From the NCBI GenBank assembly GCA_031553535.1, contig JAVBLM010000001.1, forward strand, positions 129,600-193,599: a stretch of DNA of 64,000 nt. The letters are read 5' to 3'. Below the pieces are notes generated by a model. That model was not told where the DNA came from. It made no database searches and worked only from the letters and a program-made list of their open reading frames with translations. This document shows positions 12,681 to 61,400 of the stretch, piece after piece (position 1 is the first letter of the stretch; each line of letters opens with the position of its first letter). The position numbers and the translations under genes were made by a program. Origin of the DNA: Bacteroidales bacterium (lineage in GTDB: Bacteria > Bacteroidota > Bacteroidia > Bacteroidales > WCHB1-69).

Positions 12681-12741
12681 ATGTGATTTCTTCTACCTAT
12701 ATAATCAAATCAATAAAAGAATTTGTTTTCTCCATCCCCTG

Positions 12742-12787
12742 TAACTTTATTTAACTTCTGAAACTTCTGTAACTTCTGTAACTTCTA
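12742..12787. repeat. 9-bp microsatellite (A/T)AACTTCTG x4-5
   Basis: taactttat ttaacttctg aaacttctg taacttctg taacttcta. Confidence 0.7.
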
Positions 12788-40449: not shown

Positions 40450-40541
40450 CTTAGGCTCGGAAGCTATTTCCGCTTAGGCAAAGAAGATGCTTCCGCTTAG
40501 GCTCGAAAGGTATGTTCGCTTAGGCTATGATGATACTTTAG
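40450..40541. repeat. Tandem array of four 23-bp hairpin units
   Basis: CTTAGGC recurs at 40450, 40473, 40496 and 40519. Stems are CGGAA/TTCCG, GAAG/CTTC and CGAA/TTCG. A further 2-unit 23-bp repeat (tatcgtacttttgcgtacgaaag / tatcgttccactgcgtacgtatg) is at 40061-40106. Confidence 0.7.
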
Positions 40542-41780: not shown

Positions 41781-44700
41781 ATGATGAAGAAGGTTTTTAT
41801 TTTTGTGTTAGGAATATTATTTCTTAACTTAACAGGACATTCCCAATCGGGAGTTCGAAAATGGATAGAGGATTTCGACGGAAGTACAGTTTCGTATGCC
41901 CAGAATCCTCAAGGCTCATGGGTGTTTAACACCGATTATTATCTTCCCAGCTTGAGCGGGTCGAGTGTATCAAAGTCTTATTTGGGATTTGTTCCCAGCA
42001 GAGAGGGAGATACAATTATTTTACAAACCGCCAGTGCATATGATTTGAGTAATTACGACTATGTTCAGTTACGCTTCAGTCACATTTGCAAGGTTTCCCC
42101 CATGGATATTGCAAAGATACAATACCGTATAGCCGGACAACGGTTTTGGGAAGACATCGATCCTGCTGACTATAAAGGAGGCGCTTCTAATTACACAAAA
42201 GCAAGAGGGTTTAATGCTGCAAGTTATCCCGAATGGCAAGCCAGAGACAGTACGGTTATTCCAATGCAATCGTGGTGGAAAGAAGAATTTTTCGACCTGA
42301 CTGTCAACATAAAGAAAATGAGTGGAGTGGAAATCCGTTTTTTGATTATACACGGGGATGTCCCACACACGCAGGCTTCTTTTGGCTGGCTACTGGAAAA
42401 CATCCAGTTAACGGCATCTACCCATGAATTAAGCCCTCCTATCGTAAAGTTCATCCCGCCATCGGTAAAAAATACCGTATATACTACCGGCCCTCATGAA
42501 ATAAATGCGAAGGTAAAAACCACTACCAACGCTCCTATCAAACATCCCTGGCTGAAATATACGGCAACCGAACCCGGTAAACCCGCCGTAACAGATTCCA
42601 TATCAATGACAAAGATAGCAGGAGATAGCTTGTGGAAAGCTACCATACCGCAATATATAGCAGGTACGAAAGTTGAATATTCTATTACAGGAAGAGACAC
42701 TATAGGAAATGAGGCAATCGATATGTCTGGATATGTGATAGTAAGGCCATCGGGAGGAGATAAAACAGGTTATGTCATAGTAGGTACCGGAACAACAACC
42801 ACCTCAACTTATTATTTTCCGGTAGGCCAATATTATGGTACCAGTTGGTCACGACAGATATATTTAGCCTCCGAACTAAATTCTACCTCTGCAGGAGGAA
42901 TAATTACAGAGTTCGCATGGGATTACGCCTCAAGCGGCACATTTAGTAAAACGAATCAATACTGCTATTTTCAAGTGGTAGATGATGTTGCAACTGTTTC
43001 AGGATATACAGATCCTGTTGCCAATGGAGCTACTTTAGTATGGTCGGGCACTTTTTCTGCCTCCGGCGGGCGTACATGGATAAATCTACAATTAGACCAG
43101 CCATTTTATTTACCCCCCGGAAAAAATTTGATGGTGTATTGGATAAATAATAATGGCACATCATATACTTCAACAACCTTATTTAATGGAACCTCCACCT
43201 CGCCAACAAACAGAACAATCTATGCAGGTGCTTTTAGTACAGTTTTTCCATCTACAAGTACCGGAACTCTCACGACAAACAGGCCCAATGCACGTTTTTA
43301 TATTATAGGGACTCCCCCTCTTAATTACTCCGCAGGAACTTTTTCTATAGATATGTCCGATACAATAATAGTATCTCCCGGACTAAGTGTTCCTATTGTG
43401 GCAACAATAAAAAACAAAGGGAAATCGAATCTGGATTCGGTGACGGTATCGTATTCTATCAATAATGCTGCTCACGTATCGAAAAAACTATATTTTAATC
43501 CGGGCTTGCCGTGGGATCACAATTACCAGGATACCCTGGGATATTATGTTCCCGGAGCAGCGATAAACAATGCTATTACCGTATGGATTTCATCTCCCAA
43601 TGGCGTACATGATTCCACTACCTGGGATGATACCTTAACAAAAAATGTATATGGAAGCAGTGATCTACTGGTAGCATTTGTTAGCCCGCCGGCTAATACC
43701 GTATATACCACCGGTCCATATGGGATAAAAGCTTCTATAAAGAGTATTACCGGAGCTGCACTCCCTGTCACTATTTCCTTACATGTAGATTATACCTATC
43801 AGGGAGTAACCACCAGTGATGTATTGCCCATGCTGTTGGATGCATCGGATAATTTATGGAAAGCCACCATACCCCAAAAACGCTTTAACAATCATGTTGA
43901 ATATTCAATTAGCCTGATAGATATAGTGGGTAATACTGTCGTCTTATCAAATAGCTATGATATCAAACGTTTGTGCGAAGGAACATCTAAGGGCTGCGAT
44001 ACCAATTCGGTGGGATTGGTTTCTATCGATTCACCGGAAAAAACAGGAGTACTCGCAGGCTATGATAAACCGGTACGGGTAACGTTGAAAAACAAGGGAG
44101 TGGCAGACTTGGATTCCTGTTATCTCAATTGGAGCCTCAACGGAGTACAACAACCGGGCACAGCTGTCTATAGAGGGCCATTGCCGGATGATTTTACCGA
44201 TACGATTACCGTAGGGTCGTACATGCCTGTAGCGAATCAAAGGGATACGATAAAGGTATGGGTAAGCATGCCCAACGGGAAGGTAGATCCTGTTAAAACG
44301 GATGATACATTGACGGTATCTCCATTGGGATGCGGAACTATTTTATCGGGTTATCACCAGATAGGGGAAGGCAGAACGTATACAAAATTGACCGATGTGT
44401 TAAATATAATACGTAATTGCGGAGTAAGCGGAAATCTTATTTTGCAGTTGAAAGGAGAACATCCGGGTGCGGATTTGAATGGCATATCGAATTATCTGCA
44501 AGGATATACTCTAACAATTACCTCGTATGATAATGATCCGGATAGTGCTAGAATAAAGGTTACCAGCGGAGCCGGCATTACACTCAATAACAGCAACAAT
44601 ATTGTAATAAAAAGCATTACTGTCGATGCAACCAAAGCATCGTATGCGATTCAGTTTACGGGAACATGCACCAATGTGGTCATACGCGATTGCAAGTTAT

Positions 44701-47700
44701 TAACCGATACTGCTTCTACAGCAACTACAGTAGCTCCTATCTATAAAGCATCTGCTACAGGAGTAGTAGACAGTATATTTATTATCCATAATCTTTTAGA
44801 TGGGGGATACGATGGGTTTAGTTTCTATGGAGCTCCGTCAACTTCCGTTTATGGGACCAATGTAATATTTGACAGTAATATAGTTCGCAATCAATCTCAT
44901 TACGCTTGCGCTCCGCAACATGTTGATTTTATAAGTTACTCTCATAACACCATATTGAGCAGAACTGCAAATATAGCCACAGCATGGCATGGCTTACGGG
45001 CAGTTTATTGCAATGGTCCTATTATTGGCAACCGCATACACCAACGCAATACAGGTATTACAAGTCCCGATGGAATACTAATACAATACTATAATCAATA
45101 TCCGGCTTCCAAGCTTCATCAAAGGACATTGGTTGCGAATAATGAAGTCATTACATCTCCAACCGGTGGTATTTCCGCACTACATTTCACTTCGGCAAAA
45201 GCCGAATGTATAAATAATTCTCTACATGTATCCGGAAGCGGCAATGCATATGGAATTTATATTGTCAATTCAACAATGAATGATCTGGCCATTAAAAACA
45301 ATAACATTGTCATGACAAGTGCTACCGCTCGTCCAATAGAGTTTAGCGGTACAGGCAATCTGCAATTATATGATATTGACTATAACAATTTATATGCCCC
45401 TACAAATATAGGGTTTTATGGGGTACTTATTACCTCAATGCAGACCTGGCAGCAAACAATACCCACCGATCGTCATTCAAAAAACATTATGCCTGTTTTT
45501 GTAGATCCGTCAATGAAAACAAGTCTGGAAATAGTTAAAGATTTACGCTTTTTATGCAATGTAATACCACCTGTTATAACGGATATACGTGGTAATATAA
45601 GGGCTGTTACTACAACTATGGGATGTTATGATGTGGGTTCTTACCAAGCAAATGCCACACTTTGGGAAATTACAGGGCTAACCGACGGACATACCCCGGG
45701 ACAAACAGAAGATGTTAATGTGGTTGTATTTAATACCGGAGAAGACGACATAACATCTATCAACCTGGAATGGTCGGTGAATGGAACATCAAAAGGAAGT
45801 GCAAATCATCCGGTATCATTATCCAGAGGCGACTCTACAACAATTATGGTAGGACAACTCACCTACCCGTCGGCAAATGTAACGGTAAAAGTGTGGATCA
45901 ACAATTTGAATAATGATCCCCAATTGGACGAATATGCCGGGGATGATACAGTGAGCCGGTTTGTTAATGTTTGTAACGGAGGAGGCTATAGCGGAGTGGT
46001 AAAAGTAGGCAAGAGTGTGGGAGCTTTCCCCTCTTTTGAAGCGGCTTATCAAGCATTGACCTTATGTGGTGTATTAAGCAATATAACGATTGAAATTGAG
46101 CCGGGTACATATCCGGATAACCTGAGCATATCGAATAATGCAACCGCATTTGGGACTCATAAGCTGACAGTTACTTCTTCCACTTCCAATGCAAGTGATG
46201 TAATCGTTAATTCTACCATACGCATTGAGAATGCAACCAATGTTACCTTTAAAAACATAACGGTAGACGTAGATTCTGTAAGTAATGCCTGTGGGATTGT
46301 ATTTGCAGGAACCTGTTCTAATATTGAAATAAACGCATGTACTATTCTGGCTGATCCGACAACAACTTCTTCTACTGTCCATGGAATATGGTATAATAAT
46401 ACAAATGGTTCTGGAAATCAAATTTCAAATATATCCATTATTAATAATACGATAGATGGAGGATATTGTAATGTTTATTTTAATTATTTAGGTGGGGCTG
46501 TTGGGCAAGGTTTGAATAATATAATAGATAATAATATTTTCTTGCGAGCCTGTAGCAGCGTATATATTATTCAATACGGACATGTGAGAAGTGTATCCAA
46601 TAATACCATTATTACTCGAAATACAAGCACTCAACAATATGGCATACATTTCAGGACGAATACCTGTGTGGATACGATTGCAAATAATAAAATCTTAATG
46701 CAGGGAACAGGCACATGTTACGCATTAGATTTGTATGAACAAATAAATAGTACAACCAATGGGGCTACCCATCCGGTATTGCTTGTCAATAATGAAATAC
46801 GTCATCTTGCATTGTCAGGAGGAACTTATGGAATACTTATGTACCAAACACGGGCAGATATCTTGCATAATTCTGTTTATTTCAAAGGGACATCAAGTGC
46901 TTATGCTATGTATATAAATAATACAAGAACAACCGATTACCTCAACATTAAGAATAACATCTTTTCAGTGGAAACTTCTGGAGCGGGATATCCACTTTAT
47001 GTAAACACAGCTACACATGTTACACAAGCCTTTAATACATTTATGGATTATAATGATTATCACAATACAGGTGCTAATTTTGCTTATTTAGGAGGAACTA
47101 CTATCACAACATTACCTGCTTTGCAGACGGCAACAGGCCAGGATGCCAACTCGGTAAGTGTAAAACCATTGTATATAGATACCGCTGTAAGCCTGGAATG
47201 TTCCTCGTATGATGATAAGATGGAGTGTCCTTTGCCTAACGGTGTTACGACCGACATAGAGGGAACTACCCGCCTGTTAATCACCACAATGGGGGCATAC
47301 ACCGATCAACCGGTAGGATTGGATTTAAGGGCTCAGGCAATTACACCCTGGAATACAAAAGTAGTAAAGGATCAGGTAGTTCAGGTAAATTTAAATGTAG
47401 CCAGCGGCGGGACAACACCTGTCTCTTCTGCCACCTTCGGCTGGAGTTTGAATGGACAAACCCAACAAACCGGTATTCCATGGAATCCTGCCCAGCCATT
47501 GGGATTAGCACAACAAGCCAATGTTACCATAGGCAGTTTCACCGTTACCAATACTACCAATACATACAATATAGTAGTGTGGATAGAGCGTGCCAACGGG
47601 CAACAGGATATGAAACAGAAGAATGATACGGTAAGAACATCCGCTACACTTGTTCCTTTGGCAGAGTGGGTAAAACCATTTAATGGGGATACAATATCCA

Positions 47701-50099
47701 TCCTTTCTTTTGATGTACCTGCAATTATATATACGAGTACAGGTGCTCCTCAAACTCCACCGGAATTAATAGTTGTTACAACAATCGGTACGTCTGTTTT
47801 CCAGAATACAGCACCTATGACATTGTCGAATGGTGTATGGACGGCGAATGTTCCGCAGCAATATTACGGAAGCAAGGTTGTATATTCTCTGAATGTCTCG
47901 GACACAAAGAGTAACAGTATTTCTTTGAAGGATTCGGTTTATATAATTTCCGGTGTGGGGACAGAACTCTATACAGGCCATGATTTAGCCGTATTCTCAC
48001 TGGTATCCCCGGTAACGAATCCTGATGACCTCTGCGTTCCGAATTATTTACCGGTGCAAGTACCCATTCTTAATTTGGGAGAGGATGATTATGATTTTAC
48101 ACAGGATTCCATAAAAGTATGTGCAGAGATCATCGATCCTAAAGGGTTTATTCATTCGATAATACATACTGTCAAGACGGGAACATTAGAGTCGGGACAT
48201 ACCGATACTGTAGAAATAATGTCCGCTTTGCCGGTGTATGCCGGTCTCTATAAGATTAAAACATGGGTAAGCAGTTCTGTAGATCATATTATATATGATG
48301 ATACATTAATTACCACCTATGCATCACCCAAAATAGGTTTACCTCTGTATACGAACTTCAGTACGGGCATTCCTATCGAATTTGTTTCTTCTCCGAGAAA
48401 TGGTAATAGCGTATGGGAACATTACTATGACCCAGGTTCTACCGTTCAGCCCGATTCGGGAACAGCGATGATACGGTTTAACGGCACTCCGGGTTCGATA
48501 GCACGTTTGAGTACCGGTCAATTGGATTTGTTCCAAGCCTTCAATCCCTTTGTAGAGTTCTGGTATTACCATGACGCGACAACATCAACCAGTGACTATA
48601 CGAATACGGAGATCAATGTATTAGTGAATGATGTAAGGCATAATATAGGTACAATCTATTTGAAAGATTCGTCAGGCCGTCACGGTTGGACACATTATAA
48701 ATATGATCTAAGTGCATTTACGACGGTTAATGCCTGTATTTTGATACAGTTTGAATCTATCAATAAGTATTCGGGTTCCGCTCAGCATATAGATTATATA
48801 GGAATATCTTCCGAACCTGACGCAGCTGTTTCTGGGATCATTATAACCCCTGCACCTGATTTATGCCATCGTTCGAACAAGAATATTTCTGTGGTATTGA
48901 CAGCTACCCGCTCCCAGGCAATACATTTTGACAATGCATCGGCTTTGATACTGGACATGAATGGAATTATCCATACTGTTTCCTTACAGGGCATAGTTTT
49001 AGATGGCAATAGCTCTGATACAGTACCCGTATTATCCAATATTACTATCCCGGTTGGAATTACTGACATGAAAGCCTATTTTAATACTCCGGTAGATAAT
49101 ATCCATGCCAATGATACGGCTGACCTTTCATTGGATATACGTCCTGCAATGTCTCTAACGGCGCAATCCATATCAGGAGGAACGAATTGCCTGGCAAAAG
49201 GGGGACCGGCGCAACAAGAAGTGAAGATAAAGAATATGGGTAATATAGAGATTCCCGGGATTGAGTTGGTATTAAATGTAATGACTTCTCCTCAACAAAC
49301 CCTTACAAAATCAGTAGGGAATTTGGCTCCGGGAGATTCTGCTATTATCCTCTTCGATGCTTATACCGTTCCTGCCGAGGCACAATATCAGGTACAGATA
49401 GCAGGATATATGAGTTGTGATTCGGTTTTGGTAAACGCCAGCACTCCTGTCACGGAATGCGTAGATATGGATGACCTTGTCCTGGTAGAAACCTTAAGTC
49501 CCGATCCTCTGGATGGAGGGATCGATCAGGTTGGTTCTACCAAGGAAATAGAAGTTTCCTTAACGAATACAAGTGATATGAAAAACTATCAGAACGTGGA
49601 TGTTACTACATTAATCGAGAATGCGAGCGGTCAGATACTGGCCCGGCATGTAGATATTATCCCTGCAGTTAATGTCTCGGAAAGTAATAAGCCGTTTAAA
49701 TTCACAGACAAGTACACCGTTCCTAACGAGGGAGTATATTATGTAAGGGTGTTTATAAGCAAAGTAGATAATTATCAGGAAAATGATACGATTCTGATAA
49801 CACGTACTACATCAAACAACTTACAGGGAACAGGGAATAATGTCTTTGCAATGGAGCAAAATATCCCCAATCCTGCCAATACCGGCACGACAATACGTTA
49901 TCATATACCGGAACCGGGAGAAGTAGTTTTCCATGTTCACAGCATAAGCGGTAAATTGCTGTATACCAAAGTACTGCAAGCCGAACCGGGAAAGCATACT
50001 ATAAATGTAAACACAAGTAGTTTTGCCGCAGGAATCTATATTTACTCCATGGAATTCAATGGACAACGGATTGTTAAGCGAATGAGCATCAAACGATAA
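41781..50099 (+). CDS. Giant (2772 aa) T9SS-secreted surface protein with jelly-roll, Ig/FN3-like and CARDB-like domains and two right-handed parallel beta-helix modules
   Basis: Signal peptide MMKKVFIFVLGILFLNLTGHSQ. Repeated CARDB-like segments (...NKG..DL.S..L.WSLNG...). PbH1-type repeats (NNSNNIVIKSITVDA..FTGTCTNVVIRDCKLL; FAGTCSNIEINACTIL). MAM-like jelly roll near the C-terminus. Type A T9SS C-terminal domain. Confidence 0.9.
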   Translation: MMKKVFIFVLGILFLNLTGHSQSGVRKWIEDFDGSTVSYAQNPQGSWVFNTDYYLPSLSGSSVSKSYLGFVPSREGDTIILQTASAYDLSNYDYVQLRFSHICKVSPMDIAKIQYRIAGQRFWEDIDPADYKGGASNYTKARGFNAASYPEWQARDSTVIPMQSWWKEEFFDLTVNIKKMSGVEIRFLIIHGDVPHTQASFGWLLENIQLTASTHELSPPIVKFIPPSVKNTVYTTGPHEINAKVKTTTNAPIKHPWLKYTATEPGKPAVTDSISMTKIAGDSLWKATIPQYIAGTKVEYSITGRDTIGNEAIDMSGYVIVRPSGGDKTGYVIVGTGTTTTSTYYFPVGQYYGTSWSRQIYLASELNSTSAGGIITEFAWDYASSGTFSKTNQYCYFQVVDDVATVSGYTDPVANGATLVWSGTFSASGGRTWINLQLDQPFYLPPGKNLMVYWINNNGTSYTSTTLFNGTSTSPTNRTIYAGAFSTVFPSTSTGTLTTNRPNARFYIIGTPPLNYSAGTFSIDMSDTIIVSPGLSVPIVATIKNKGKSNLDSVTVSYSINNAAHVSKKLYFNPGLPWDHNYQDTLGYYVPGAAINNAITVWISSPNGVHDSTTWDDTLTKNVYGSSDLLVAFVSPPANTVYTTGPYGIKASIKSITGAALPVTISLHVDYTYQGVTTSDVLPMLLDASDNLWKATIPQKRFNNHVEYSISLIDIVGNTVVLSNSYDIKRLCEGTSKGCDTNSVGLVSIDSPEKTGVLAGYDKPVRVTLKNKGVADLDSCYLNWSLNGVQQPGTAVYRGPLPDDFTDTITVGSYMPVANQRDTIKVWVSMPNGKVDPVKTDDTLTVSPLGCGTILSGYHQIGEGRTYTKLTDVLNIIRNCGVSGNLILQLKGEHPGADLNGISNYLQGYTLTITSYDNDPDSARIKVTSGAGITLNNSNNIVIKSITVDATKASYAIQFTGTCTNVVIRDCKLLTDTASTATTVAPIYKASATGVVDSIFIIHNLLDGGYDGFSFYGAPSTSVYGTNVIFDSNIVRNQSHYACAPQHVDFISYSHNTILSRTANIATAWHGLRAVYCNGPIIGNRIHQRNTGITSPDGILIQYYNQYPASKLHQRTLVANNEVITSPTGGISALHFTSAKAECINNSLHVSGSGNAYGIYIVNSTMNDLAIKNNNIVMTSATARPIEFSGTGNLQLYDIDYNNLYAPTNIGFYGVLITSMQTWQQTIPTDRHSKNIMPVFVDPSMKTSLEIVKDLRFLCNVIPPVITDIRGNIRAVTTTMGCYDVGSYQANATLWEITGLTDGHTPGQTEDVNVVVFNTGEDDITSINLEWSVNGTSKGSANHPVSLSRGDSTTIMVGQLTYPSANVTVKVWINNLNNDPQLDEYAGDDTVSRFVNVCNGGGYSGVVKVGKSVGAFPSFEAAYQALTLCGVLSNITIEIEPGTYPDNLSISNNATAFGTHKLTVTSSTSNASDVIVNSTIRIENATNVTFKNITVDVDSVSNACGIVFAGTCSNIEINACTILADPTTTSSTVHGIWYNNTNGSGNQISNISIINNTIDGGYCNVYFNYLGGAVGQGLNNIIDNNIFLRACSSVYIIQYGHVRSVSNNTIITRNTSTQQYGIHFRTNTCVDTIANNKILMQGTGTCYALDLYEQINSTTNGATHPVLLVNNEIRHLALSGGTYGILMYQTRADILHNSVYFKGTSSAYAMYINNTRTTDYLNIKNNIFSVETSGAGYPLYVNTATHVTQAFNTFMDYNDYHNTGANFAYLGGTTITTLPALQTATGQDANSVSVKPLYIDTAVSLECSSYDDKMECPLPNGVTTDIEGTTRLLITTMGAYTDQPVGLDLRAQAITPWNTKVVKDQVVQVNLNVASGGTTPVSSATFGWSLNGQTQQTGIPWNPAQPLGLAQQANVTIGSFTVTNTTNTYNIVVWIERANGQQDMKQKNDTVRTSATLVPLAEWVKPFNGDTISILSFDVPAIIYTSTGAPQTPPELIVVTTIGTSVFQNTAPMTLSNGVWTANVPQQYYGSKVVYSLNVSDTKSNSISLKDSVYIISGVGTELYTGHDLAVFSLVSPVTNPDDLCVPNYLPVQVPILNLGEDDYDFTQDSIKVCAEIIDPKGFIHSIIHTVKTGTLESGHTDTVEIMSALPVYAGLYKIKTWVSSSVDHIIYDDTLITTYASPKIGLPLYTNFSTGIPIEFVSSPRNGNSVWEHYYDPGSTVQPDSGTAMIRFNGTPGSIARLSTGQLDLFQAFNPFVEFWYYHDATTSTSDYTNTEINVLVNDVRHNIGTIYLKDSSGRHGWTHYKYDLSAFTTVNACILIQFESINKYSGSAQHIDYIGISSEPDAAVSGIIITPAPDLCHRSNKNISVVLTATRSQAIHFDNASALILDMNGIIHTVSLQGIVLDGNSSDTVPVLSNITIPVGITDMKAYFNTPVDNIHANDTADLSLDIRPAMSLTAQSISGGTNCLAKGGPAQQEVKIKNMGNIEIPGIELVLNVMTSPQQTLTKSVGNLAPGDSAIILFDAYTVPAEAQYQVQIAGYMSCDSVLVNASTPVTECVDMDDLVLVETLSPDPLDGGIDQVGSTKEIEVSLTNTSDMKNYQNVDVTTLIENASGQILARHVDIIPAVNVSESNKPFKFTDKYTVPNEGVYYVRVFISKVDNYQENDTILITRTTSNNLQGTGNNVFAMEQNIPNPANTGTTIRYHIPEPGEVVFHVHSISGKLLYTKVLQAEPGKHTINVNTSSFAAGIYIYSMEFNGQRIVKRMSIKR
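44000..47300 (+). repeat. Two copies of a ~1.65-kb CARDB + beta-helix supermodule (protein-level repeat) inside the 2772-aa gene
   Basis: The marker motif F.GTC(T/S)N..I..C.(L/I)L occurs at about 44652 and about 46300 (spacing ~1645 nt). Each copy is preceded by a CARDB-like W(S)(L/V)NG segment. Confidence 0.7.
49836..50096 (+). other. T9SS type A C-terminal sorting domain of the 2772-aa protein
   Basis: NNVFAMEQNIPNPANTGTTIRYHIPEPGEVVFHVHSISGKLLY...AGIYIYSMEFNGQRIVKRMSIKR. The N.PNPA start and G.Y......NG......K.... end are typical of Por_Secre_tail domains. Confidence 0.8.
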
Positions 50100-50122: not shown

Positions 50123-50151
50123 GGCTGCCTCCCCGGCAGCCTTTTTTATTT
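50123..50151 (+). terminator. Intrinsic terminator (module copy 3 of 3)
   Basis: GGCTGCC-tcccc-GGCAGCC followed by ttttttattt. Confidence 0.8.
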
Positions 50152-50154
50152 CAC

Positions 50155-50460
50155 AGGTTTCCTTGTTATTCGAAGGCATAGCTCCATGTTGTTTTAAAGA
50201 AGTCCATAGGCACTACAAGGTTGGGAAAGGGATATTCATTCTTGTTTAAAGATGTCCCAAGGCTGGGAAAGGGATTTTCATCTTTGTTTGGAGGTGTCCC
50301 AGAATTGGGAAAAGGATTTTCACTCTTATTTGAAGGTGTCCCAAAGTTGGGAAAGGGGTTTTCATCCTTGTTTAGAGATGTCCCAGAATTGGGAAAAGGA
50401 TTTTCACCCTTATTTGAAGGTGTCCCAGGGTTGGGAAAGGTTCATGCAGCTATTACAAGG
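50155..50460. repeat. Tandem array, about 7 units of exactly 42 bp, two hairpins per unit
   Basis: TGGGAAA recurs at 50222, 50264, 50306, 50348, 50390 and 50432, with one or two degenerate units to the left. Unit: tgggaaagggattttcatctttgtttggaggtgtcccagaat. Hairpin TCCCA-gaat-TGGGA. Confidence 0.9.
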
Positions 50461-50575
50461 GAAAATAATACAATATATCTTTAACCTCCTATCAAAAAGA
50501 AATATATTCCGGTCATTATAGGACTATCTTTGCATCAACTTTTGATAATTTTATTACAAGTATTTAATATTTGTT

Positions 50576-50583
50576 TATATTTG
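50576..50583 (+). promoter_or_regulatory. -7 promoter box (TAtaTTTG) upstream of the TPR-LuxR regulator gene
   Basis: Exact TAnnTTTG match 27 nt upstream of the ATG at 50610. Confidence 0.35.
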
Positions 50584-50609: not shown

Positions 50610-52286
50610 ATGATAAAATCATTTTTCTTCAAAAAAGCTATCTTATTGTTATTGATGCTATTTCCGATTATCGGTCAAGGAAATAATAATCGCTCCTATT
50701 GTGAAGAACTTCTTGAGCAGTCGAAAAAAGAACGTATTGAGGGGAATTATATAAAATCCATAGAACTTCTCTCCGAAATTAAAGTGCTTTCAATAAATAA
50801 TGACTGGACAGATCTGCTAACGTATGCCCTCAATATTGAAGGTACTATCTATATGGATTTATTGGATTATCAGAAAGCAATGGAATGCTTTCTATCCGGC
50901 TATGAAATCGCTATAAAACAATCCTATAAAACGCAGCAAATAATGATATTGAACAATATCTCGCAGATATATTACATTAATAATGAAACAGACAAAGCAA
51001 AAGAATATCTTGATAAAGCATATGAAATATCCGAACAACTACAAGACAGTGCAAAACTAGGAATCGTGAGCATGAATCTGGGTGTAGTTTTCAATAAAAC
51101 CGGGGATCTCAACCAGGCGGAAAAATATCTGGATATTGCTATCAAATTGTCAAGTAAAGTAAAAGATACGATAACATGGATCGCATCAAAAGTAATAAAA
51201 ATAGAGAACCTGTATCTGAAAAAAGAATACGATAAGGCAGAATCACTGGCACTGGAAATTCTGGAAGAGACCCAATCTGAAATGGATGATGATCAGAATG
51301 CACAGTGTTTGCTATTGCTTTCCCAGATCCACGACCAAAAGAAAAACTATCCCAAGGCCATTTCATATGCCCGTGAAGCACTAAACAATCATGTTAAGTT
51401 AACACTAAAGATCGAAATCTATGAACAATTATCAAAATTATACAGGAGTAATAATGCTCTGATTTTAGCTCTCGACTATCAAGATTCTTTATCCATAGCG
51501 AAAGATTCGTTAATGAAAATAAATGATATGGCACAAGTGGCCAATAATCAAATACGCTTCGACCTGATTAATTCTGAAAAGGAATTAGCAGAAAATAAAG
51601 CAAAACAAAAGACGGAACGAACCTTCTTTATCTTTGTTGTTATTTTTATGATCATACTTTCTATTATCGCTATATGGATATACCGTATTAAGCTGGAAAA
51701 AAATAAGCAACAAAAGATAATCGCAGAGAATGAACAAAAGATCATAAAGTTAAAACTGGAAAAAGAACAAAACGAACGTTTATTATTAGAGCAACAATTA
51801 AAAGAACAAGAAACGCTATCATTATTGGAACAAGAAAAACTAAACAATGAAATCGATACAAAAAACAGACAACTTGCATCGAAGGCCTTATTCCAATCGA
51901 ACAGAAATGAATTGATCAAAGAAATTATCGACACCTTTTCCAATATTGTATCAAACAAAGTAAAAAACGATGTACTTGAGTCAGCTATTCAACAATTGAG
52001 ACTGCAACTAAAGGAATCTGCGGAATGGGATGGTTTTTTAGTCTATTTCGAGAAAATCAACCCCCTGTTTTTATCATCCTTAAAAGAGAAGCATCCTACA
52101 CTCAATGCCAGTGAAATCCGGTTCCTTTCCTATATTTACCTTAACCTGGACACAAAAGAAATTGCCAAACTATTAAATATTACCCCGGGACATTGTAGAA
52201 AAAAACGGTTACGGCTTGCCAATAAGATGCATGTATCCATAGCTGAATTATACAGCTACCTGATAAATGAAATAGATTCAAATTAG
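50610..52286 (+). CDS. Membrane-anchored one-component regulator: signal peptide, extracytoplasmic TPR region, TM helix, coiled coil, LuxR-type HTH
   Basis: MIKSFFFKKAILLLLMLFPIIGQG. TPR-like repeats over ~300 aa. TM helix TFFIFVVIFMIILSIIAIWIY. Coiled coil KLEKEQNERLLLEQQLKEQE. C-terminal LNASEIRFLSYIYLNLDTKEIAKLLNITPGHCRKKRLRLANKM. The track start at 50571 is TTG. Confidence 0.8.
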   Translation: MIKSFFFKKAILLLLMLFPIIGQGNNNRSYCEELLEQSKKERIEGNYIKSIELLSEIKVLSINNDWTDLLTYALNIEGTIYMDLLDYQKAMECFLSGYEIAIKQSYKTQQIMILNNISQIYYINNETDKAKEYLDKAYEISEQLQDSAKLGIVSMNLGVVFNKTGDLNQAEKYLDIAIKLSSKVKDTITWIASKVIKIENLYLKKEYDKAESLALEILEETQSEMDDDQNAQCLLLLSQIHDQKKNYPKAISYAREALNNHVKLTLKIEIYEQLSKLYRSNNALILALDYQDSLSIAKDSLMKINDMAQVANNQIRFDLINSEKELAENKAKQKTERTFFIFVVIFMIILSIIAIWIYRIKLEKNKQQKIIAENEQKIIKLKLEKEQNERLLLEQQLKEQETLSLLEQEKLNNEIDTKNRQLASKALFQSNRNELIKEIIDTFSNIVSNKVKNDVLESAIQQLRLQLKESAEWDGFLVYFEKINPLFLSSLKEKHPTLNASEIRFLSYIYLNLDTKEIAKLLNITPGHCRKKRLRLANKMHVSIAELYSYLINEIDSN

Positions 52287-52372: not shown

Positions 52373-52452
52373 TCTTATATAAATAATGGAAAAAGATTTT
52401 TTCTCATTTTTGTAAAGATATTCTTATTAATCTTTTACAAATTTTACGTGTT

Positions 52453-55400
52453 ATGAAAAAATGGATGTTTTTATTACTGGTAACTTTAATTTCTCTACAA
52501 GCAAGCTATTCTCAAAATGTTTCTTATGAAAGAGAAAATTTTGATGGAAACAGTATCAGCTTTGTTTCTCAACCTTCCTCGTCATGGAGAATTGACAAAA
52601 ATTACTATGTAAGTTCTCCTAATTCTTATCGAGGTGTTGTCCCCAATAAGTCAGGAGACTCAACGATTTTAACCTCTCCTCCTTATGATTTTTACACGAA
52701 TGGTTATTCCAATATATTACTTCGGTTCAACCATATCTGCAAAATATCTCCCCGGGATATCGTCCGGATAGAATATAAGATTCAAAATCAAGGCTGGCTT
52801 CCAATACCGGCAACTGCTTATTTGGGAAAAGCCGCCAATTATATAACCACCGGATTCAATGCCGCCAGCTATACTCAATGGCAAGCCAACGATAGTACAG
52901 CCCTTCCTACAAACAACTGGTGGAAAGAAGAAACATTTGACCTGGGCTTTTTAATGGGATATGCCCCTAATGCTCAAATCCGGTTTATTATAAAGCACGG
53001 CAGTACACCCGGAACACAAATTTCATACGGGTGGCTACTGGACAACATTGAGATAACTGCTTCCACTTATCTGGTTCGGGATCCTATTGTAGAATTTATA
53101 GGTAGTGTTGTAAAGGACACCGTTAACAGTACCGGGCCTTATACTATAAATGCAAAAGTACAAACCACAACAAGTGCTCCAATTAAGACCCCTTTCCTGA
53201 CATATACATATACTTTGAATGGAGTATCTACTACAAATTCCATCGAAATGGATCCTGTATCCGGGGATTCTTTATGGAGAGGTGTTTTACCTCAAATTGA
53301 AGGAGGAAGCACTGTTTCGTATTCCATCACAGGCTATGATACAAATGGGAATAATGCAACAGTACAAGAGCGTTATTTCATTAAGAAACCCTCCGGCAAT
53401 GATAGTGTTTCAGTTGCATTAACAAGCATAAACTCTCCCGCGAAAGGAGAAAACCCAGTAGGGGCTACCCCTGTAACAGCTACATTCCGTAACAAAGGTG
53501 ATTCCACGTTAAGAGCTGTGGAGATCAATTGGAGTTTAAATGGAGTGTTGCAAACAGTACAACCTCATACCTGGACAGGGGGTCTACCCTGGGATTTTGA
53601 ACATACGGAGCAATTAGGCACCTTCAACCCTCGTTTAAGAATGTCGGATACTATTGTTATATGGGTAAACAATCCCAATGGCATACAAGACCCCAAGCAT
53701 TCGGATGACACCTTATCCATTATTACTTATGGTTGTCCAGTAGATGTATCGGGCAGTTTCCCTGTAGGGAAGAACAGTGAATTCAAAACGATACAGGAAG
53801 CTTTTAACTCTTTTCAAAAATGCAGCCCTACCGGAAATATCACCCTCGAACTGGAATCCGACACGATCCGTGAAAACTGGGATTTCTCCAATATCAATTC
53901 TTTTATGAATGGATACATGCTGACGATAACATCGTTAAAACATCACAGGGATAGTGTCGTTCTTCGTCCAAATACAGGAGGAATAGGTATAACATTGGGA
54001 AATACAAGAAACCTTACATTGGATGCGATTACAGTTGATGTTAGCCATTTAATTCCTCAGATTCCTGTTATGATGAATGTATATGCTATCTATTTCAGTA
54101 ATACATGTACCAACATTATCATTAATAATTGTAATATAAAAGCACACAAAACATCTAACTCAACTAATATACATCCAATCTTTAAAGGAAGTACAGGGCT
54201 TGCAGACAGTATTTATATAACAAATAATATCTTAGATGGAGGATATTCGGGATTTACTTTTCCCGGTGGAAATACAAATCAATATGGAAAGAATATAGTT
54301 TTTGACAGCAATACACTCACTAATCAGTATTATTATGGAATAAATGCTTCTTATACCGATTTTAAAAGCATATCCAATAACACAATTCTTAGCAGGGAAG
54401 CTGCCAATTTCAGCGCAACATGGATTGCCATATATATGAACAATGCCAACGGTAATATTACAGGGAACCGGATCCGGCAACGTAATACATCAAACATTAC
54501 CAACCCGAGAGGGATTTTCAGTTATTACCATAATTATTACTTTACGAACGACACCGCGCTTATTGCCAACAATGAAATTATAATTTATACAACCGGAGAA
54601 TATGAAGGAATACAGGTAAATTATTCCCGTTCGAAAATCATACACAATTCCATATATGTAAAAGGATCCGGATCTTCAAGAGGGATTTACATCAATGAGC
54701 CCGGATATGTTAATATCCATGTTATCAAGAACAATAATATAATTATGGAATCTGCTGCTGCATACCCTATCCAGATTTCAAAGGCAACAAATATAAGGAG
54801 TTATGATATAAACAGTAATAACTATTATGCTCCGACTTATATTGGAAATATAGGAGGAACAGGAGGGGATAAACTAACAATGGATGCCTGGCAAAAGATG
54901 GTTACAACAGACGTGAATTCCGTAAGAATCCGAAGTTCTTTCATAGACAGCACCAAAAACCTGAAGATGCGTGACTATACGGGACTGGAATGCAAGCCTC
55001 TTCCGGAAGTACCTAAAGATATTGATAATACACCGCGCCTGGGATTAACAACGATGGGTTGTTACCATTACGATCCGATGTATACGGTAAATGCAAGATT
55101 AACAGACCTCCAGGGATGGAGGGAAGGAAACATTTCGGGAGAATCCGATACGGTAAAAGTATTACTGACCAATACAGGAGCAACTCCTTTGACAAATGCC
55201 AATTTAACATGGATATTCAATGGGGCAGAAACAACAACAGCATGGTCGGGAACTTTAGCCAAAGGGGAAAGCACTACTGTCACATTAGGGAAAATAACCT
55301 ATATCTCGGGTAATTATACAATAACCGCCAGAATAGATAACTTGGGCGGCTCTTTGCAAGACGATTTTTTACAGGATGACACTACTTCCGTTTCAATATT

Positions 55401-58400
55401 TGTATGTTCATCTATATACAGTACAGGAATATATACTATCGGAAAAACAGCAAGTTCTTTTACATCGGTAGAAGAAGCTATTAAGAAGCTATCTCTTTGC
55501 GGAGCAAACGGAGACATTACACTGGAAATAAAAAACGGTACATACGCCAACACCGTCGACCTGACCGGTATTTCTTCTTTGTTAGGGAACAATAAATTGA
55601 CCATCAAATCCCAAAGCGGAAACCCCGGAGATGTTATTCTACAAACAACCAATATCGGATTTACATTAGCACGAAGCAATAACATTGTAATAGATGGCGT
55701 AACAATAGATGCAAAGGGAGGAATAGTAGGCATACAGTTTTTAGATACATGTACAAATGTTGTCATTCAAAATTGTATATTATTGGTTGATACAACCGTC
55801 ACATCCAACAAATATGGTGGGATTTATAAGCCCAGTATTGCCAATGTTGCAGATAGCATCTTTATACTAAATAATATTATAGAAGGAGGGCATTTTGGGA
55901 TCTGGCTTTATGGTGTCAGCTCAAGTGTCTATGACAGTAATATTTTTATAACCGGTAATGCTATCTCCAAACAATCACATTATGGAATTTATTTATATTA
56001 TACTGATTTTAGAATTATATCAAACAATATAATAACAAGCAGATTGTCCAACATAAATACTTCATGGACAGGAATAAATACTTCAAATACGAATGGAGAC
56101 ATTATTGCAAATAAAATAAAACAATTAAACAGGGCAATATCATATGCAGTAGGAATAAGTCTTTCAAATCATAATAATAACAAAACGGAGTTAGCGCTGA
56201 TTGTAAACAATGAAATAAATGGTTATGTGGGAAATGGTTATGCTGCATTAGCTCTTTCAAGTACTCGTGCCGATATTATACATAATTCTATATATGTTCG
56301 AAGAGTTGCAGGTTCAAAGGGTATTGGTATAAGTGACGGAACCAGTAATCGTCTCAATATTAAAAATAATAATATTATAATGGACACTACGGGTACCTTC
56401 CCTATCTATATTAATGGTTCTTCAAATGCAGCTTTGTATAACTTTGAATCTAACAACTATTATTCGCCAAGTTACATAGGATACGCAGGTGCAAATAAAG
56501 TAACAATGGAGCAATGGCAAGATGTGTTCTTTACAGATATTAATTCCGTAAAGGTTCGTCCTACCTTTATAGACAGTACTATTAATTTAAAATTCATAAA
56601 TTATGACAGTGTAAAATGTCCTGTTTTGTCAGATGTTGATACCGATTTGGAAGATAGCATCCGGGCAGGGGCATTTACAGCAATGGGATGTTATCATGGA
56701 TTTGCACCTTTTTCGAAGAATATTAAACTAACGGAAATCCTTAATTGGAATGAAGGGCCAGTCTATGGAACAAATGATACGGTTAAGGCTGTAATTATAA
56801 ATACCAGTTTATCCTCTTTCTTGCCACAAACTATTAATTGGTCTTTTAATGGAAATTCCAGAACAGGAGTTCCATCAAACAAGACATTGGCATATGGGGA
56901 AAGGGATACCATTACGTTAGGAATAATAAATTACGGTTTGGGACATAATATATTAACTGCATGGATCGATAATTCTCAGGACAATTATCTCGAAGATGAT
57001 ACGATACTGGCAACAAGTTATATATGTTCTACAGCCGGAATTAACGGTACTTTCACGGTAGGAAAAACAGGGGATTTTAAAACCATAAATCTTGCACTAC
57101 AACAAATAGAAGACTGCGGAGTAAATGGAAATATTATACTGAAAGTACAACCCGGCCTGTATGTTGAAGACATAGACTTAACTGACTATGCTTTAATATT
57201 AGGTAATAATAAATTGACGATTACCTCTACTACAGGAAATGCTGAAGACGTTGTTTTTAAAACACTGTCAGTGGGAATGATATTGTCCCAAAGTAATAAT
57301 ATCGTTATAGATGCCATTACAATTGATGCAACAAAAGGGAAGTTTGCAATACAATTTAAAGGCGCTTGCACCAATGTTGTAATTAGTAATAATATTCTAT
57401 TAGCAAACCTAACTACAACTTATAGCGATTATAATCCTATACATAAAGGTAGCAATACAGGTGTAGTTGATAGTATTTTTATTGTAAATAATGAATTAAA
57501 CGGAGGATATATTGGTTTTAATTTTATTGGAGGAGTAGCTTCGACCCTTGGAACAAATGTGGTTTTTGACAGTAATCGAGTTTTCAATACACATACTTCG
57601 GGAATATATCCGCAATATACTCATTTTACCAGTATTTCGAATAATACCATATTAAGCAGAACGGAAAATACAATAACCAGTACATGGTATGCAATGCGTT
57701 TTGAAAGTTGCAATGGCCCCATTACAAATAACCGGATAAAACAACAAAGTAATGTGATTGCACAACCTTACGGAATATATCTTAATAATTATAGTATCAA
57801 TTCAACAGCAGATACTGCATTGATTGCCAACAATGAAGTCATGCTTAATGTTGCAACAGGTACAACAGGTGGCATATATACAAATGTTTCCCGTACAAAA
57901 ATTATCAATAATTCCATTTACGTATCCGGTGCTGCTGCAGCAAGGGGAATGTATATTGCTAATGATAATAATAGCCGTACTGTCGCAAAAAACAATAATA
58001 TTGTTGTGGCATCTTCTTCTGCATATCCTATTTATCTGAATTACGTAACCAATATGAGTTTATGTGATCTGGATTACAACAATATGTACGGCACCGGATA
58101 CGTGGGATACTGCGGAAGTACCGGAGGTGCAAAAGCCACCATAGATGCCTGGCAACAATTTGTTACCAGTGATAAGCATTCAGTGAGTGTTTATCCGAAT
58201 TTTATTGATCTTACCAAAAATATGGATCTATTGGATAGTGTATTGAGTTGCCCTGTATTTGAAAATGTTACAGAAGATATAAATAAGAATACTCGTGTTT
58301 CTCCCAACACTACAATGGGTGCATATCAATATATAGGTACAACACACGATGTCCATCCTGTTGAATTTGTAAATTTATCTCCAACTTATCCGCTTGGAAC

Positions 58401-61400
58401 GCTTATTCCATTGCAGGTTGCCATTACAAATTCCGGAACCGATACATTAAAATCAGCTTTGATCAGTTGGACTGCCAATGGAGTATTACCATACAAAGTA
58501 CAACCCTGGCAAGGAAACCTGGCACCGGGAGAAACAGAAGTCGTTCCTGTAACAACAGGTAGCCTGACACTTGGAGCAGGAAATACAGACTTAATATTAT
58601 TCACCAGTATGCCTAATAATGTTCCGGACACGAGAACATTTAATGATACGTTGAGAACCTCTATCTATGCATGCGACAGTATGCTTAACGGGACATACCT
58701 GGTTGGTACCGGAGAAGATATCGAAGATTTAAAAACCGTTTTTGAATTATTATCCAAATGTGGAATTGATGGAACCGTTACGTTCAAGCTAACTCCGGAT
58801 ACCTACACATGGAATCAAAATATAGGGACATATCCGGGAGTAAATTATTACAACAGGATTATCTTCACATCATCCACTTCAAATGCCGGAGATGTAACTA
58901 TACTTTCTACAGGTACCGCTTCCATGACTTTAAGCCAGGCAAAATATATTACCCTAAAAGATATTACTATCGGTAATTCATCCGCTGCCGTAGCTTTACG
59001 TTTCTCCGGAACATGTAGTGATATTGAAATCAATGGCTGTATTATTTCAGCTAATCCGACAACAACAGTTGCCACATCAAGGGCTATTGAGTATGTCGAA
59101 ACATACGGGAGCGGAAACAAACTGGATAATATCCGAATAGTAAACAACACAATAAACGGCGGATATTATAATGTATATTTTGATTATCCCGGCAGTTCGG
59201 AAAATGCCGTGTCGGACATTACTTTTGATAACAATATATTAACGAATGCATATTCGTATGGTTTCTATTCGAAGAACTGGGGATATTATCGCAGTATTTC
59301 GGATAATACAATTAAAACACGAAATGCAAATACTACTCAATATGGTATATATGCAGAGGCCAACACAAATATTGATAATTTGAACCGGAATAAAATACAT
59401 CTGTATGGAACATCCAATTCCAATGGTATTTATTTATCCGGGATTAATTCCTCTACATATCTGACAAGATACAATGCCCAAATAATAAACAATGAAATAA
59501 TTATTTCAAGTGCCGGAGGCAGCAACCCCAGTTACGGAATATCTACATCCAACACTAATGCAACCATGTTCCACAACTCTATCTATTTGCAAGGAACCGC
59601 CGGTTGCTACGGATGGAATATCGCTTCAACCGCGGCTACATATTCCCTTATCTCCAAAAACAATCTATATGTAACCAAGACAACAGGGGCAGGCTATCCT
59701 CTTTATGCAAGCAATGCCACCTTTGTAACAACGGCAGGAGGGACAATTTCAGATTACAATAATTATTACACCACAGGAACAAATATTGCTTTTATTGGAT
59801 CTCCTGTAGCAACACTTGCCAATTTACAAACCGCAACGGGGCAGGATGCTAACTCAACAAACAAAGAACCGGTATTTACCGATGTTACCAAAAGTTTGGA
59901 AATTGCAGATGCGGCAAATATAATATGTCCTGTCAATCCGGTTGTATTATCTGATATCAGAGATGTTTTACGTGTTGATTCAACCAACATCGGAGCATAC
60001 GGAATTGCGTTAAAGAAACTGGATGCTATGGCCACGGAGATTATTCTGTCTTCCGACCAGAGCACCCCTACCCTCAAAATTAAAAACACAGGAAAGGACA
60101 CTATTAAATCAATAGAAATTAATAGTTTGTACAACGGAAGAGTAAAATCACCTGTATCATGGAATGGCTCCATTGCTTCCATGGAGGAAGTATCGATTGT
60201 TTTGGATACAATTATGGCCGACCCGGATTATAATACAATCACTGCGTGGATCAGCAATGTAAACGGTGGAGGATTGGATTCCTTACAGTTAAATGATACT
60301 GCAAGTACTGCATTCTATCTATGCCAAGGAGGGTTAGCCGGAATATATACTGTCGGGAATTCAGGCAAGTTTAAAACGATTGATAATTTTATAGATGTGA
60401 TAAGCAAATGTGGAGTAAGTGGAGCTATTACTTTAGCATTTGAAGATGGAACACACAATATAACATTCGATGTATCGTCTATCTCTACCATATTAAACTC
60501 TCACCCATTGACTATTACTTCCGAAAACCAGGATTCTTCTTTAGTTAAGCTTATCGCGTTGAAAGATGCGGTTATATTATTAGGGAATAATACAAATGTT
60601 ACAATTAAAGATCTGACGATAAATGCGAAACAAGCCAAATATGGAATACAATTTACAGCAGCATGTTCGAATATTGTCATTGACAAATGTGCTATATTGG
60701 CAAACCCAACAACAACACAGAATAATAGCTATCCTATTTTTAAAGGAGATAAAACAGGTATTGCGGACAGTATCCGTATTACAAATAATCTTCTTGATGG
60801 CGGCTATACCGCATTGTGGTTTTATGGCGGAATTGACAATAATACATACGGAAAAAATATAGTCCTGGACAGTAATACGATAAGCAATCAATCCCATTAT
60901 GGAATATATCCGCAATATGTAGATTTTTTCAGTGTATCTTATAATACGGTTTTAAGTAGAACTGCAAACATAAATACAACATGGATAGGATTGCGAATGC
61001 AATATGCAAATGGTCCCGTTATCGGCAATAGTGTTATCCAAAGAAGTAATGACATAACACATCCAACAGGTATTTACGCATATTACTATAATTATTATCT
61101 TGCCGGCAACAACATAGGTCGCATAATAAACAATGAAGTTATCTTGAATACCACAGATATGCAAAGCGGGATAGAAATAGGTTACTCTAATGTTGACGTT
61201 ATCCATAATTCCATATACATAACAGGAACAGGAGCTGCCCGTGGAATTACAACCCGTGCTGAGATTAATAACCTGACTATCAAAAACAACAATATAGTAA
61301 CAACAGCGACCAGTTCATACCCTATCAGTATTACAAATAGATTGGTATTAAGACCTAATAATATCGATTATAATAACTATTACGCACCTACATACATCGG

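Follow-up and report, generated by a model that had tools for sequence, protein, structure and literature searches.

The subject of this study is a pair of tandem arrays with a period of 41 to 42 bp, array 1 and array 2, on a 64,000-nucleotide stretch (the window) of a termite-gut-type Bacteroidales genome (GTDB lineage WCHB1-69; GenBank assembly GCA_031553535.1, contig JAVBLM010000001.1, positions 129,600 to 193,599 of the forward strand). The window is core chromosome, with genes for hydrogenases, HtpG and AspRS, an mraZ-ftsZ cluster, an RND pump and two giant genes. Exact look-ups of two window proteins found neither of them on record. Array 2 is placed between the intrinsic terminator of one giant gene and the putative -7 boxes of a gene for a tetratricopeptide repeat (TPR) protein, as listed here:

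41781-50099, + strand: upstream giant gene, 2772 amino acids (aa), with a type IX secretion system (T9SS) C-terminal sorting domain (open reading frame (ORF) list; Pfam Por_Secre_tail)
50123-50147, + strand: intrinsic terminator of the giant gene, GGCTGCC-TCCCC-GGCAGCC and then T6 (terminator scan)
50155-50215, no strand: left flank that had been counted into array 2, with at most faint decayed repeat traces
50216-50445, + strand: array 2 proper, five full 42-bp units and a final dyad (Tandem Repeats Finder (TRF); in-register printing; nhmmer unit matches 50217-50451)
50297-50310, no strand: representative main dyad, TCCCA-GAAT-TGGGA (inverted-repeat search; alignment columns 1-7 with 12-18)
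50525-50583, + strand: two putative Bacteroidetes-type -7 boxes (TAnnTTTG), TATCTTTG at 50525-50532 and TATATTTG at 50576-50583 (motif scan)
50610-52286, + strand: downstream TPR-repeat protein gene, 558 aa (ORF; Pfam TPR families)
11898-12245, + strand: array 1, the sister array, about 8.3 units (TRF; left-flank test; fold z-scores)

TRF reports array 2 at 50216-50440 with a period of 42 bp, 5.4 copies, 78% matches and no indels, and also at a higher-order period of 84 bp, which results from the alternation of two unit subtypes; the consensus unit is TGTCCCAGAATTGGGAAAGGGATTTTCATCCTTGTTTGAAGG. A sequence-only reading of the window had noted six exact 42-bp periods here, and TGGGAAA indeed recurs at 50222, 50264, 50306, 50348, 50390 and 50432, that is, in six copies separated by five exact 42-bp steps. 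The start that it had given to the array, 4 nt after the terminator, could not be upheld. Local alignment of 50148-50220 with the unit consensus gave no significant indication of a repeat origin (P = 0.08), and the sole repeat trace in the left flank is a 19-nt match of 84% between 50193-50211 and 50245-50263. Thus, array 2 proper starts at about 50216, some 70 nt past the terminator. As had been claimed, the inverted repeat TCCCA-N4-TGGGA is found in each of its units (further copies of TCCCA-GAAT-TGGGA lie at 50255-50268, 50339-50352, 50381-50394 and 50423-50436), and it corresponds to the TTTCGG-N5/6-CCGAAA dyad of array 1.

The Por_Secre_tail match of the giant gene has an E-value of 6.5e-06 and scores 26.8 bits against a Pfam cut-off of 27. 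On the other side, the ATG of the TPR gene lies 165 nt past array 2. TAnnTTTG is the consensus of the Bacteroidetes-type -7 box, and because both putative boxes lie between the array and the TPR gene, array 2 is upstream of a likely promoter. The C-terminus of the TPR protein resembles by eye a LuxR-type helix-turn-helix, which Pfam did not confirm.

Array 1, with the consensus unit TTTCGGGAATATCCGAAAGGTTCAAACCATTCGGTTTGGAGG, consists of a core (12011-12245), in which TRF finds alternating units of 41 and 42 bp and hence an 83-bp higher-order period, and of decayed units (11898-12010); its left flank is significantly repeat-derived (P < 0.001). A gene for a LuxC-like protein, which is 100% identical to a protein on record at NCBI, adjoins it. 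An independent short-read assembly of the same sequence (Logan SRR23967709) contains a contig that carries this gene and stops within a few bases of the homogeneous core, at about 12015; the arrays break short-read assemblies.

The sequence-only reading had proposed that the two arrays share GAAAGG and a 10-mer at the same relative positions, and that they belong to a family rather than being random satellite DNA. Both proposals are borne out. With at most three mismatches, GAAAGG-N13-GTTTGGAGGT matches the 64 kb 11 times, against 0.5 expected, and 10 of the 11 matches fall in the two arrays, all on the + strand. Array 2 shows GAAAGG and GTTTGGAGG 13 nt apart in the shared register, once exactly and four times with two or three mismatches (the exact 10-mer occurs in only one unit, at 50267), and nhmmer unit matches within it have E-values from 3e-06 to 8e-03. 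With the consensus units of arrays 1 and 2 in the same register, 22 of 42 positions agree, which, taken alone, is of moderate significance against shuffles (P = 0.012); the count by hand had been about 24 of 41. We define the array family by the GAAAGG / TGTTTGGAGG frame and a period of 41-42 bp. Scans of one genome per species with the frame over one and a half periods retrieved a 41/42-bp array of 9.9 units in Flavobacterium aureirubrum (L002; L numbers designate retrieved loci), and a scan of metagenomes gave 32 stretches, of which four are true 41/42-bp arrays (L021, L023 from human gut, L025 and L031). Because the shared frame retrieved these five further arrays from other organisms, the arrays form a real family. 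Consensus identities reach 31/42 between array 2 and L025, 30/42 between array 1 and L023, and 28/42 between array 1 and the Flavobacterium array (P < 0.0002 in each case). No two arrays of the family diverge more from each other than those of the window, each of which is closer to an array of a different organism.

An alignment of 27 units from these arrays has invariant or nearly invariant columns at C4, G15 A16 A17 A18, C27, G34 T35 T36 T37 and G41. Each unit contains an 18-nt dyad made up of T(T/G)TC, two to three variable pairs, 3-8 central nt, the complement of these pairs and GAAA; a conserved (C)TGTTTGRAGG lies directly 5' of the dyad and GG(Y)TC directly 3' of it, followed by about 10 nt that vary. 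Every family array has a period of 41, 42 or alternating 41/42 bp, and the dyad, the flanking motifs and the spacing are constant between arrays, with the inner bases of the dyad differing. Motifs and spacing persist from Bacteroidia to Flavobacteriia, while the remainder of the unit diverges. Since higher-order periods of 83, 84 and 125 bp occur among the arrays and their edges are decayed, we infer that they grow and homogenise by slippage or unequal recombination of blocks of one to three units.

A unit model found no solitary copies outside the arrays, either in the 64 kb or in some 90 kb of sequence of relatives. The array edges showed neither a conserved leader or tail nor terminal inverted repeats or a target duplication. 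The plasmid collection gave no match to array 1 DNA, and the frame pattern gave only chance single matches in the viral collection. No description of the family was found in Rfam or, with sequence strings and keywords, in the searchable literature, which returned only primers and the BrickBuilt paper discussed below. These phased short-palindrome arrays of Bacteroidota are apparently undescribed. In F. aureirubrum, a Flavo-1 RNA (RF01705; L002:3907-3966) lies between the array and a rarA-like gene and a second copy (L002:2490-2549) past a divergent rhomboid gene, with scores of 54 and 60 bits; a 13-bp repeat in 11 tandem copies follows rarA (L002:5318-5463).

The main stems of the two window arrays are one homologous dyad, T(T/G)TC-N10-GAAA, with columns 1-7 paired with columns 12-18. 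Its outer TC/GA pairs (T-A, C-G) are common to the arrays, and its inner two to three pairs vary: GG/CC in array 1 and L031, GGG/CCC in some array 1 units and L021, CCA/TGG in array 2 and L025, and CGG/CCG in L023. Array 2, reading TGTCCCA-N4-TGGGAAA, keeps the outer TC/GA and has complementary inner pairs (3-16, 4-15, 5-14, 6-13 and 7-12 are Watson-Crick pairs, and 2-17 is G-A); relative to array 1, the inner two pairs have switched on both sides from G-C to C-G and one A-T pair has been added. Over all units, 82% of the main-dyad cells are paired and 26 cells are changed on both sides, compared with 12.3 +/- 3.1 in shuffles, a value that none of 500 shuffles reached, and shifted-partner controls were all lower. 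The units show GC 13 times and CG 11 times at pair 5-14, GC 13 and CG 8 times at pair 6-13, and AU 9 and GC 7 times at pair 7-12. As units within one array are copies of each other, the honest sample is the arrays, seven in number. Pair 5-14 is of the Watson-Crick kind in each of them, with one orientation (G-C) in four and the other (C-G) in three, and so is pair 6-13 in all six arrays that possess it. We conclude that the main dyad is maintained, with real compensatory change between arrays. The sequence-only reading, which had the whole main stem swapped on both halves together, was right for the inner pairs and not for the outer ones. The mismatches among the 189 main-dyad cells (151 of them Watson-Crick) show no wobble bias, with 4 G-T, 8 A-C and 17 G-A, and the outer TTTC-N10-GAAA spacing is nearly fixed.

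A second stem had also been said to covary, from AAACC/GGTTT in array 1 to AAGG/CCTT in array 2. This claim falls, because the two stems occupy different columns (24-28/33-37 and about 18-21/30-33, respectively), each using one conserved motif as an arm. A conserved second hairpin was rejected, since a helix in a common register has 62% of its cells paired, against 65% in shuffles, and no covariation. Overall, the earlier observation was largely right: the family claim was right, and one of its two covariation claims holds in reduced form.

All family arrays are intergenic and non-coding, and relative to the flanking genes the same, divergent, convergent and antisense directions all occur. No Bacteroidetes-type promoter (-7 box) of their own was consistently found upstream of the arrays. 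A preference for positions 3' of T9SS cargo genes, which the sequence-only reading had proposed to test, is not borne out: among the seven family arrays, array 2 is the only one so placed. In addition, no array occurs at the orthologous site after the LuxC ortholog in six relatives (L038, L039, L040, L042, L046 and L047; 66-76% identity), and the array is thus evolutionarily labile. About 90 kb from relatives, fetched regardless of repeats, contain 21-bp arrays and three more hairpin-bearing 42-bp arrays that are unrelated in sequence:

L039:1045-1253: sequence-unrelated 42-bp array
L040:8363-8631: sequence-unrelated 42-bp array, alternate units of which bear TCAAG/CTTGA or TCGGGA/TCCCGA at one place
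L040:15589-15914: sequence-unrelated 42-bp array

No 42-bp arrays were found in about 190 kb of unrelated control loci. Further arrays with a period of 42 or 21 bp are present in the relatives at L040:1411-1513 and L046:13809-13947, and most of the relatives' arrays have internal hairpins. Gene callers predict ORFs lacking Pfam domains across three of them. L040 and L046 carry a repeat at the same site, after an RseP-like peptidase gene, with different periods and sequences.

Searching the genes that flank the foreign arrays with Pfam brought up a candidate partner. A DUF6261 gene (PF19775) directly adjoins the arrays of L023 and L025, as well as that of the termite-gut locus L039, and the three proteins share only 23-25% identity with one another. 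Two further DUF6261 genes, located on chromosome-like records of Parabacteroides distasonis (L048 and L049), came to light when the plasmid collection was searched with tblastn. In all five DUF6261 loci examined, a 41/42-bp phased dyad array lies 41-261 nt upstream of the start of the gene, each with its own dyad:

L023:429-655: array upstream of a DUF6261 gene
L025:2102-2295: array upstream of a DUF6261 gene
L039:1045-1253: array upstream of a DUF6261 gene
L048:3691-3869: array upstream of a DUF6261 gene
L049:3497-3663: array upstream of a DUF6261 gene

The L049 array has 4.0 copies of a 42-bp unit with perfect ATTTAAA-CT-TTTAAAT dyads at 3535, 3577 and 3619, and the gene starts 97 nt after it. 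L048 contains five CTTAGGCCTAAGA-like palindromes at 3691, 3732, 3774, 3815 and 3857, spaced by 41, 42, 41 and 42 bp; only these 13-bp palindromes and their spacing are conserved, the DNA between them being too diverged for detection by TRF, which indicates selection. With spacers of 0-2 bp, the dyads of L048 and L049 cannot form hairpins, and they look like duplex sites for a protein. The DUF6261 proteins at these loci have 245-283 aa. They match nothing in NCBIfam, PHROGs, PADLOC or the PDB sequences, and no useful literature on them was found. DUF6261 was likewise absent from the viral collection.

We tentatively favour the view that the arrays are phased protein-binding arrays that act on DNA as multi-site docking platforms, a reading that we regard as possible rather than probable. 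A row of dyad-symmetric sites about 41.5 bp apart, equal to about four helical turns, would present all sites on one face of the helix, so that a sequence-specific protein could assemble cooperatively on them. Each array subtype would have its own binding specificity, the candidate partner at the other loci would be DUF6261, and the likely target of array 2 would be the promoter region of the downstream TPR gene. Several arguments favour DNA over RNA as the substrate. Firstly, the arrays occur in any orientation to transcription and yet have strand-specific motifs. Secondly, the main dyad lacks a wobble bias. Thirdly, L048 conserves palindromes and spacing only, and the 0-2-bp spacers of L048 and L049 preclude hairpins. 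The sequence-only reading had proposed selection on the ability to pair, whether as cruciform or hairpin DNA, as RNA or as a dyad-symmetric protein site with array-specific specificity. Compensatory change in the main dyad supports its general point, and among its three options the protein site fits best, because the dyads upstream of DUF6261 genes have 0-2-bp spacers and G-T is not favoured over A-C.

A further step, which we consider rather doubtful, would be to regard the arrays and DUF6261 as an unrecognised protein-DNA system of Bacteroidota. DUF6261 would then be a new sequence-specific DNA-binding protein whose sites, rows of dyads with a phase of about 41.5 bp, lie directly upstream of the gene that encodes it; protein and dyad would co-diversify, and orphan arrays would be bound in trans as further sites for loading or regulation. 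Both window arrays are such orphans, since the window has no DUF6261 homolog (tblastn E > 1).

That absence itself weighs against the docking-platform reading, as do the following observations. No par or rep genes were found in the 64-kb window, and no binding protein was identified for its two arrays. In DUF6261, neither a recognisable DNA-binding domain nor an annotated relative was found, and its sample is small, with five loci, two of which are from one genome. The L021 array lies between convergent gene ends and not in a promoter region. At the level of the unit, the centre of the dyad is not constant within array 1, where its length differs by 1 nt, segments of 3-8 nt in this position suit hairpins as well as duplex sites, and the conserved purine-rich flanking motifs are not accounted for by a simple model of a dimer on a dyad. 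Finally, the AAACC/GGTTT-type stem of array 1 and L023 has 12 G-T against 2 A-C mismatches, which would be compatible with RNA, or with the G-rich strand read as a single strand.

Among known systems, the closest architectural analogue of the proposed docking platforms is sopC; parC/ParR, iteron and operator arrays are broadly alike. SopC consists of 12 repeats of 43 bp, each with a 16-bp inverted-repeat SopB site, the remainder being spacer (PMC3177203). As in sopC, the arrays consist of direct tandem repeats of about 42-43 bp with one short inverted-repeat site per unit, and at other loci of the family the array adjoins a candidate gene for the cognate protein. In every other respect, they fall outside the sopC type. 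The setting here is chromosomal and housekeeping, with no ParA, ParB or Rep in the window and no adjacent par or rep gene; the candidate DUF6261 does not resemble ParB or SopB, and next to the window arrays there is no partner gene at all. Furthermore, the family arrays carry extra conserved motifs that are not palindromic.

The alternative that survives best is that the arrays are neutral or selfish structured minisatellites, comparable to REP/BIME, BOX or BrickBuilt elements, whose palindromes promote slippage and which have no function for the host, the shared motifs reflecting common descent or horizontal spread. We consider this somewhat unlikely for the family as a whole, and plausible for the orphan arrays. 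It would account for the absence of the array after the LuxC ortholog in six relatives, for family members at unrelated loci of different organisms, for the higher-order periods and decayed edges, which are typical of slippage, and for the several unrelated 42-bp and 21-bp arrays in relatives; moreover, we know of no shown function for most bacterial minisatellites. However, spread of this kind is difficult to reconcile with the lack of solitary or dispersed units, with edges that have no conserved leader, tail or terminal inverted repeats, and with the domain searches, which found no transposase, REP-associated tyrosine transposase (RAYT), Y1_Tnp or integrase in the 64-kb window. The two arrays of the same genome are the most divergent (22/42), which is not as expected of recent intragenomic spread. 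Nor does neutrality readily explain why motifs and 41-42-bp spacing survive across Bacteroidia and Flavobacteriia when other parts of the unit diverge, or the selection indicated by L048, and it leaves the association with DUF6261 at five of five loci unexplained.

BOX elements of pneumococcus and mycobacterial interspersed repetitive units (MIRU) are intergenic, tandemly repeated modules of 40-100 bp with a potential for secondary structure, as are the arrays described here. Unlike them, the arrays lack end modules of the boxA or boxC kind as well as small ORFs coupled with the flanking genes, and their orientation relative to these genes is not fixed. Repetitive extragenic palindromes and bacterial interspersed mosaic elements (REP/BIME) resemble the arrays in being short, imperfect intergenic palindromes, often located after gene ends, with stem families per genome and the ability to cluster. 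The arrays differ from them in running directly head to tail at a fixed 41-42-bp period instead of in alternating orientations, in having no GTAG/GTGG head in their units and in lacking many dispersed copies, with no single units outside arrays in the 64 kb or the related loci; there is also no Y1 transposase within the window. BrickBuilt of Porphyromonas gingivalis is, like the arrays, a spacerless tandem minisatellite of Bacteroidales that is always intergenic and breaks assemblies, and a few of its terminal repeats read CCGAAAGGTCTC, resembling CCGAAAGGCTC of array 1 (PMC4596501). It has a 23-nt unit, AGAYCATARTATCCTCTCRTRTG, a leader and a tail with IS5-type terminal inverted repeats, and about 19 similar copies per genome in one species (PMC4596501). 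The unit here has 42 bp and is unrelated, and the array flanks share nothing, which places the arrays outside BrickBuilt. The arrays are not CRISPR arrays either: their units are contiguous, the part that would be the spacer is itself repeated, and no cas domains were found in the window.

A second alternative is that the arrays are transcribed into structured RNA repeats with one hairpin per unit, which would function as an antitoxin-like RNA (as ToxI does for ToxN), as a sponge for a protein or ribosomes, or as a stabiliser or insulator in an untranslated region. We regard this as unlikely. On the one hand, covariation of the main dyad would be expected of such an RNA, G-T is tolerated in the extra stem of array 1 and L023, and most arrays fold better than shuffles: the z-scores are -7.4 and -9.2 for array 1 and -10.8 for L023, and over the ten arrays folded (seven of the family and three unrelated) the G-rich strand spans -0.2 to -10.8 and the opposite strand -2.0 to -9.2. 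On the other hand, array 2 does not exceed shuffles in stability on its + (G-rich) strand (z = -0.02 and -0.2) and exceeds them only weakly, at z = -2.4 and -2.0, on the - strand. The varying orientation to neighbours, the lack of a promoter motif of the arrays' own and the lack of wobble bias in the main dyad also speak against RNA, as do the whole units of L048, which are not conserved, and the 0-2-nt spacers of L048 and L049, with which hairpins are impossible. With Rfam at gathering thresholds, the only match in the window was the DUF805b motif, away from the arrays, and scans by E-value, which covered both window arrays and five further array loci, returned nothing but noise where the arrays lie.

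The conserved motifs offer another possible link to RNA. GAAAGG and GGAGG(T/TG) on the G-rich strand are the two halves of an extended Shine-Dalgarno sequence, GAAAGGAGGTG, which can also be written GAAAGGAGG(TG) for the halves GAAAGG and GGAGG(T). The extended Shine-Dalgarno sequence is complementary to the 3' tail of 16S rRNA, and Shine-Dalgarno pairing is rarely used by Bacteroidota. With 65 + 36 copies in the window, where about 47 would be expected, GGAGG is no rarity, and complementarity of the array motifs to the 16S 3' tail is speculation on our part.

For the DUF6261 loci, the layout seen in toxin-antitoxin systems of type III is a serious rival. In these systems (ToxI upstream of toxN, cptIN, tenpIN), a tandem array lies directly upstream of a gene and the repeat sequence is specific to the protein (PMC3401426), a layout that the five DUF6261 loci match. 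Published systems have repeats of 31-62 nt in 1.9-5.6 copies, with toxins of up to 288 aa (PMC3401426); tandem 41-42-nt repeats directly upstream of a gene for 245-283 aa fit these ranges. In contrast to type III systems, none of the five loci has a terminator between the array and the DUF6261 gene, and DUF6261 matches no ToxN, AbiQ or other defence model in PADLOC and no toxin in Pfam. Moreover, L048 keeps palindromes only, and no such gene lies downstream of the window arrays on either strand.

The last alternative, that array 2 encodes 14-residue repeats (LGKGFSxLFxxVPx, in a + strand frame from 50221 within an 87-aa ORF with a TTG start), is highly improbable: its period is exactly 42 bp, or 14 codons, its isolated variable sites are synonymous (TTG/CTG, AAG/AAA, GGA/GGG, TTG/TTA), its variable triplets are codons 7, 10 and 14, and the ORF resembles Bacteroidia protein repeats (match to protein P0218, E = 3.8e-08), but array 2 alone keeps the frame, which is lost across the family through the 41-nt units of array 1, the F. 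aureirubrum array and all L023 units. Only two alternating subtypes underlie the variation, with some 6 synonymous and 8 non-synonymous events, a difference that lacks significance, and the variable block 40-42+1 is equally explained as the dyad centre. The ORF comes after the terminator and has no ATG start. An exhaustive protein search with it gave 562 matches at E <= 0.001, most of the best-scoring ones inspected being repeat-against-repeat noise (for example, junk translations of minisatellites, and ABC-2-type membrane proteins that contain repeat regions); a six-frame chimeric protein query from all arrays had no match at that threshold, and the repeat DNA of P0218 does not match the unit model. 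A Bacteroidia protein family does combine an N-terminal coiled coil, four to seven 14-aa repeats (xIPEKGNGxxxxxx) and a C-terminal winged helix (L043:250-509, L044:5090-5270, L045:6134-6341). Its coding repeats also have 42 bp and are palindromic around GAAAAAGG (TTCGGG..CCCGAA, GTACCA..TGGTAC, GTTATTCC..GGAATAAC), and one member adjoins a PorZ gene.

Other repeats and features were noted in the window. An AT-rich, ORF-less stretch of 830 bp (12246-13075) between array 1 and ferritin-like and peroxiredoxin genes contains a 9-bp repeat in 5.2 copies (12739-12786) and other short repeats. A 283-bp unit is present three times in tandem at 40947-41801 (91% matches), and its end coincides with the giant gene's start codon (41781); two of the copies reach the gathering score for the DUF805b RNA motif (41155-41195 and 41716-41756), and the middle copy has the same core sequence, yet was not reported by the Rfam scan. 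Three separate 23-bp tandem repeats lie at 30261-30344, 40070-40114 and 40450-40526, the last with the unit CTTAGGCTCGGAAGATATTTCCG, which contains a CGGAA-N5-TTCCG dyad; their period equals that of the BrickBuilt minisatellite, and the sequences are unrelated. After the TPR gene, a + strand frame is open from 52387 to 64000 (11.6 kb) with a probable start near 52453, and this second giant gene runs off the window.

Even if the arrays are neutral, they constitute an apparently undescribed minisatellite family in Bacteroidia and Flavobacteriia, with real compensatory change in its dyad. If they are loading platforms, this would be the first function for DUF6261, spanning termite-gut Bacteroidales to human-gut Parabacteroides, and it would imply a phased-operator or centromere-like architecture on Bacteroidota chromosomes. 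The signature of the family (a 41/42-bp period, the T(T/G)TC-N10-GAAA dyad and TGTTTGGAGG) would then annotate regions that are mis-called as ORFs and that break short-read assemblies. The link with DUF6261 is testable, and it makes the finding worth following.

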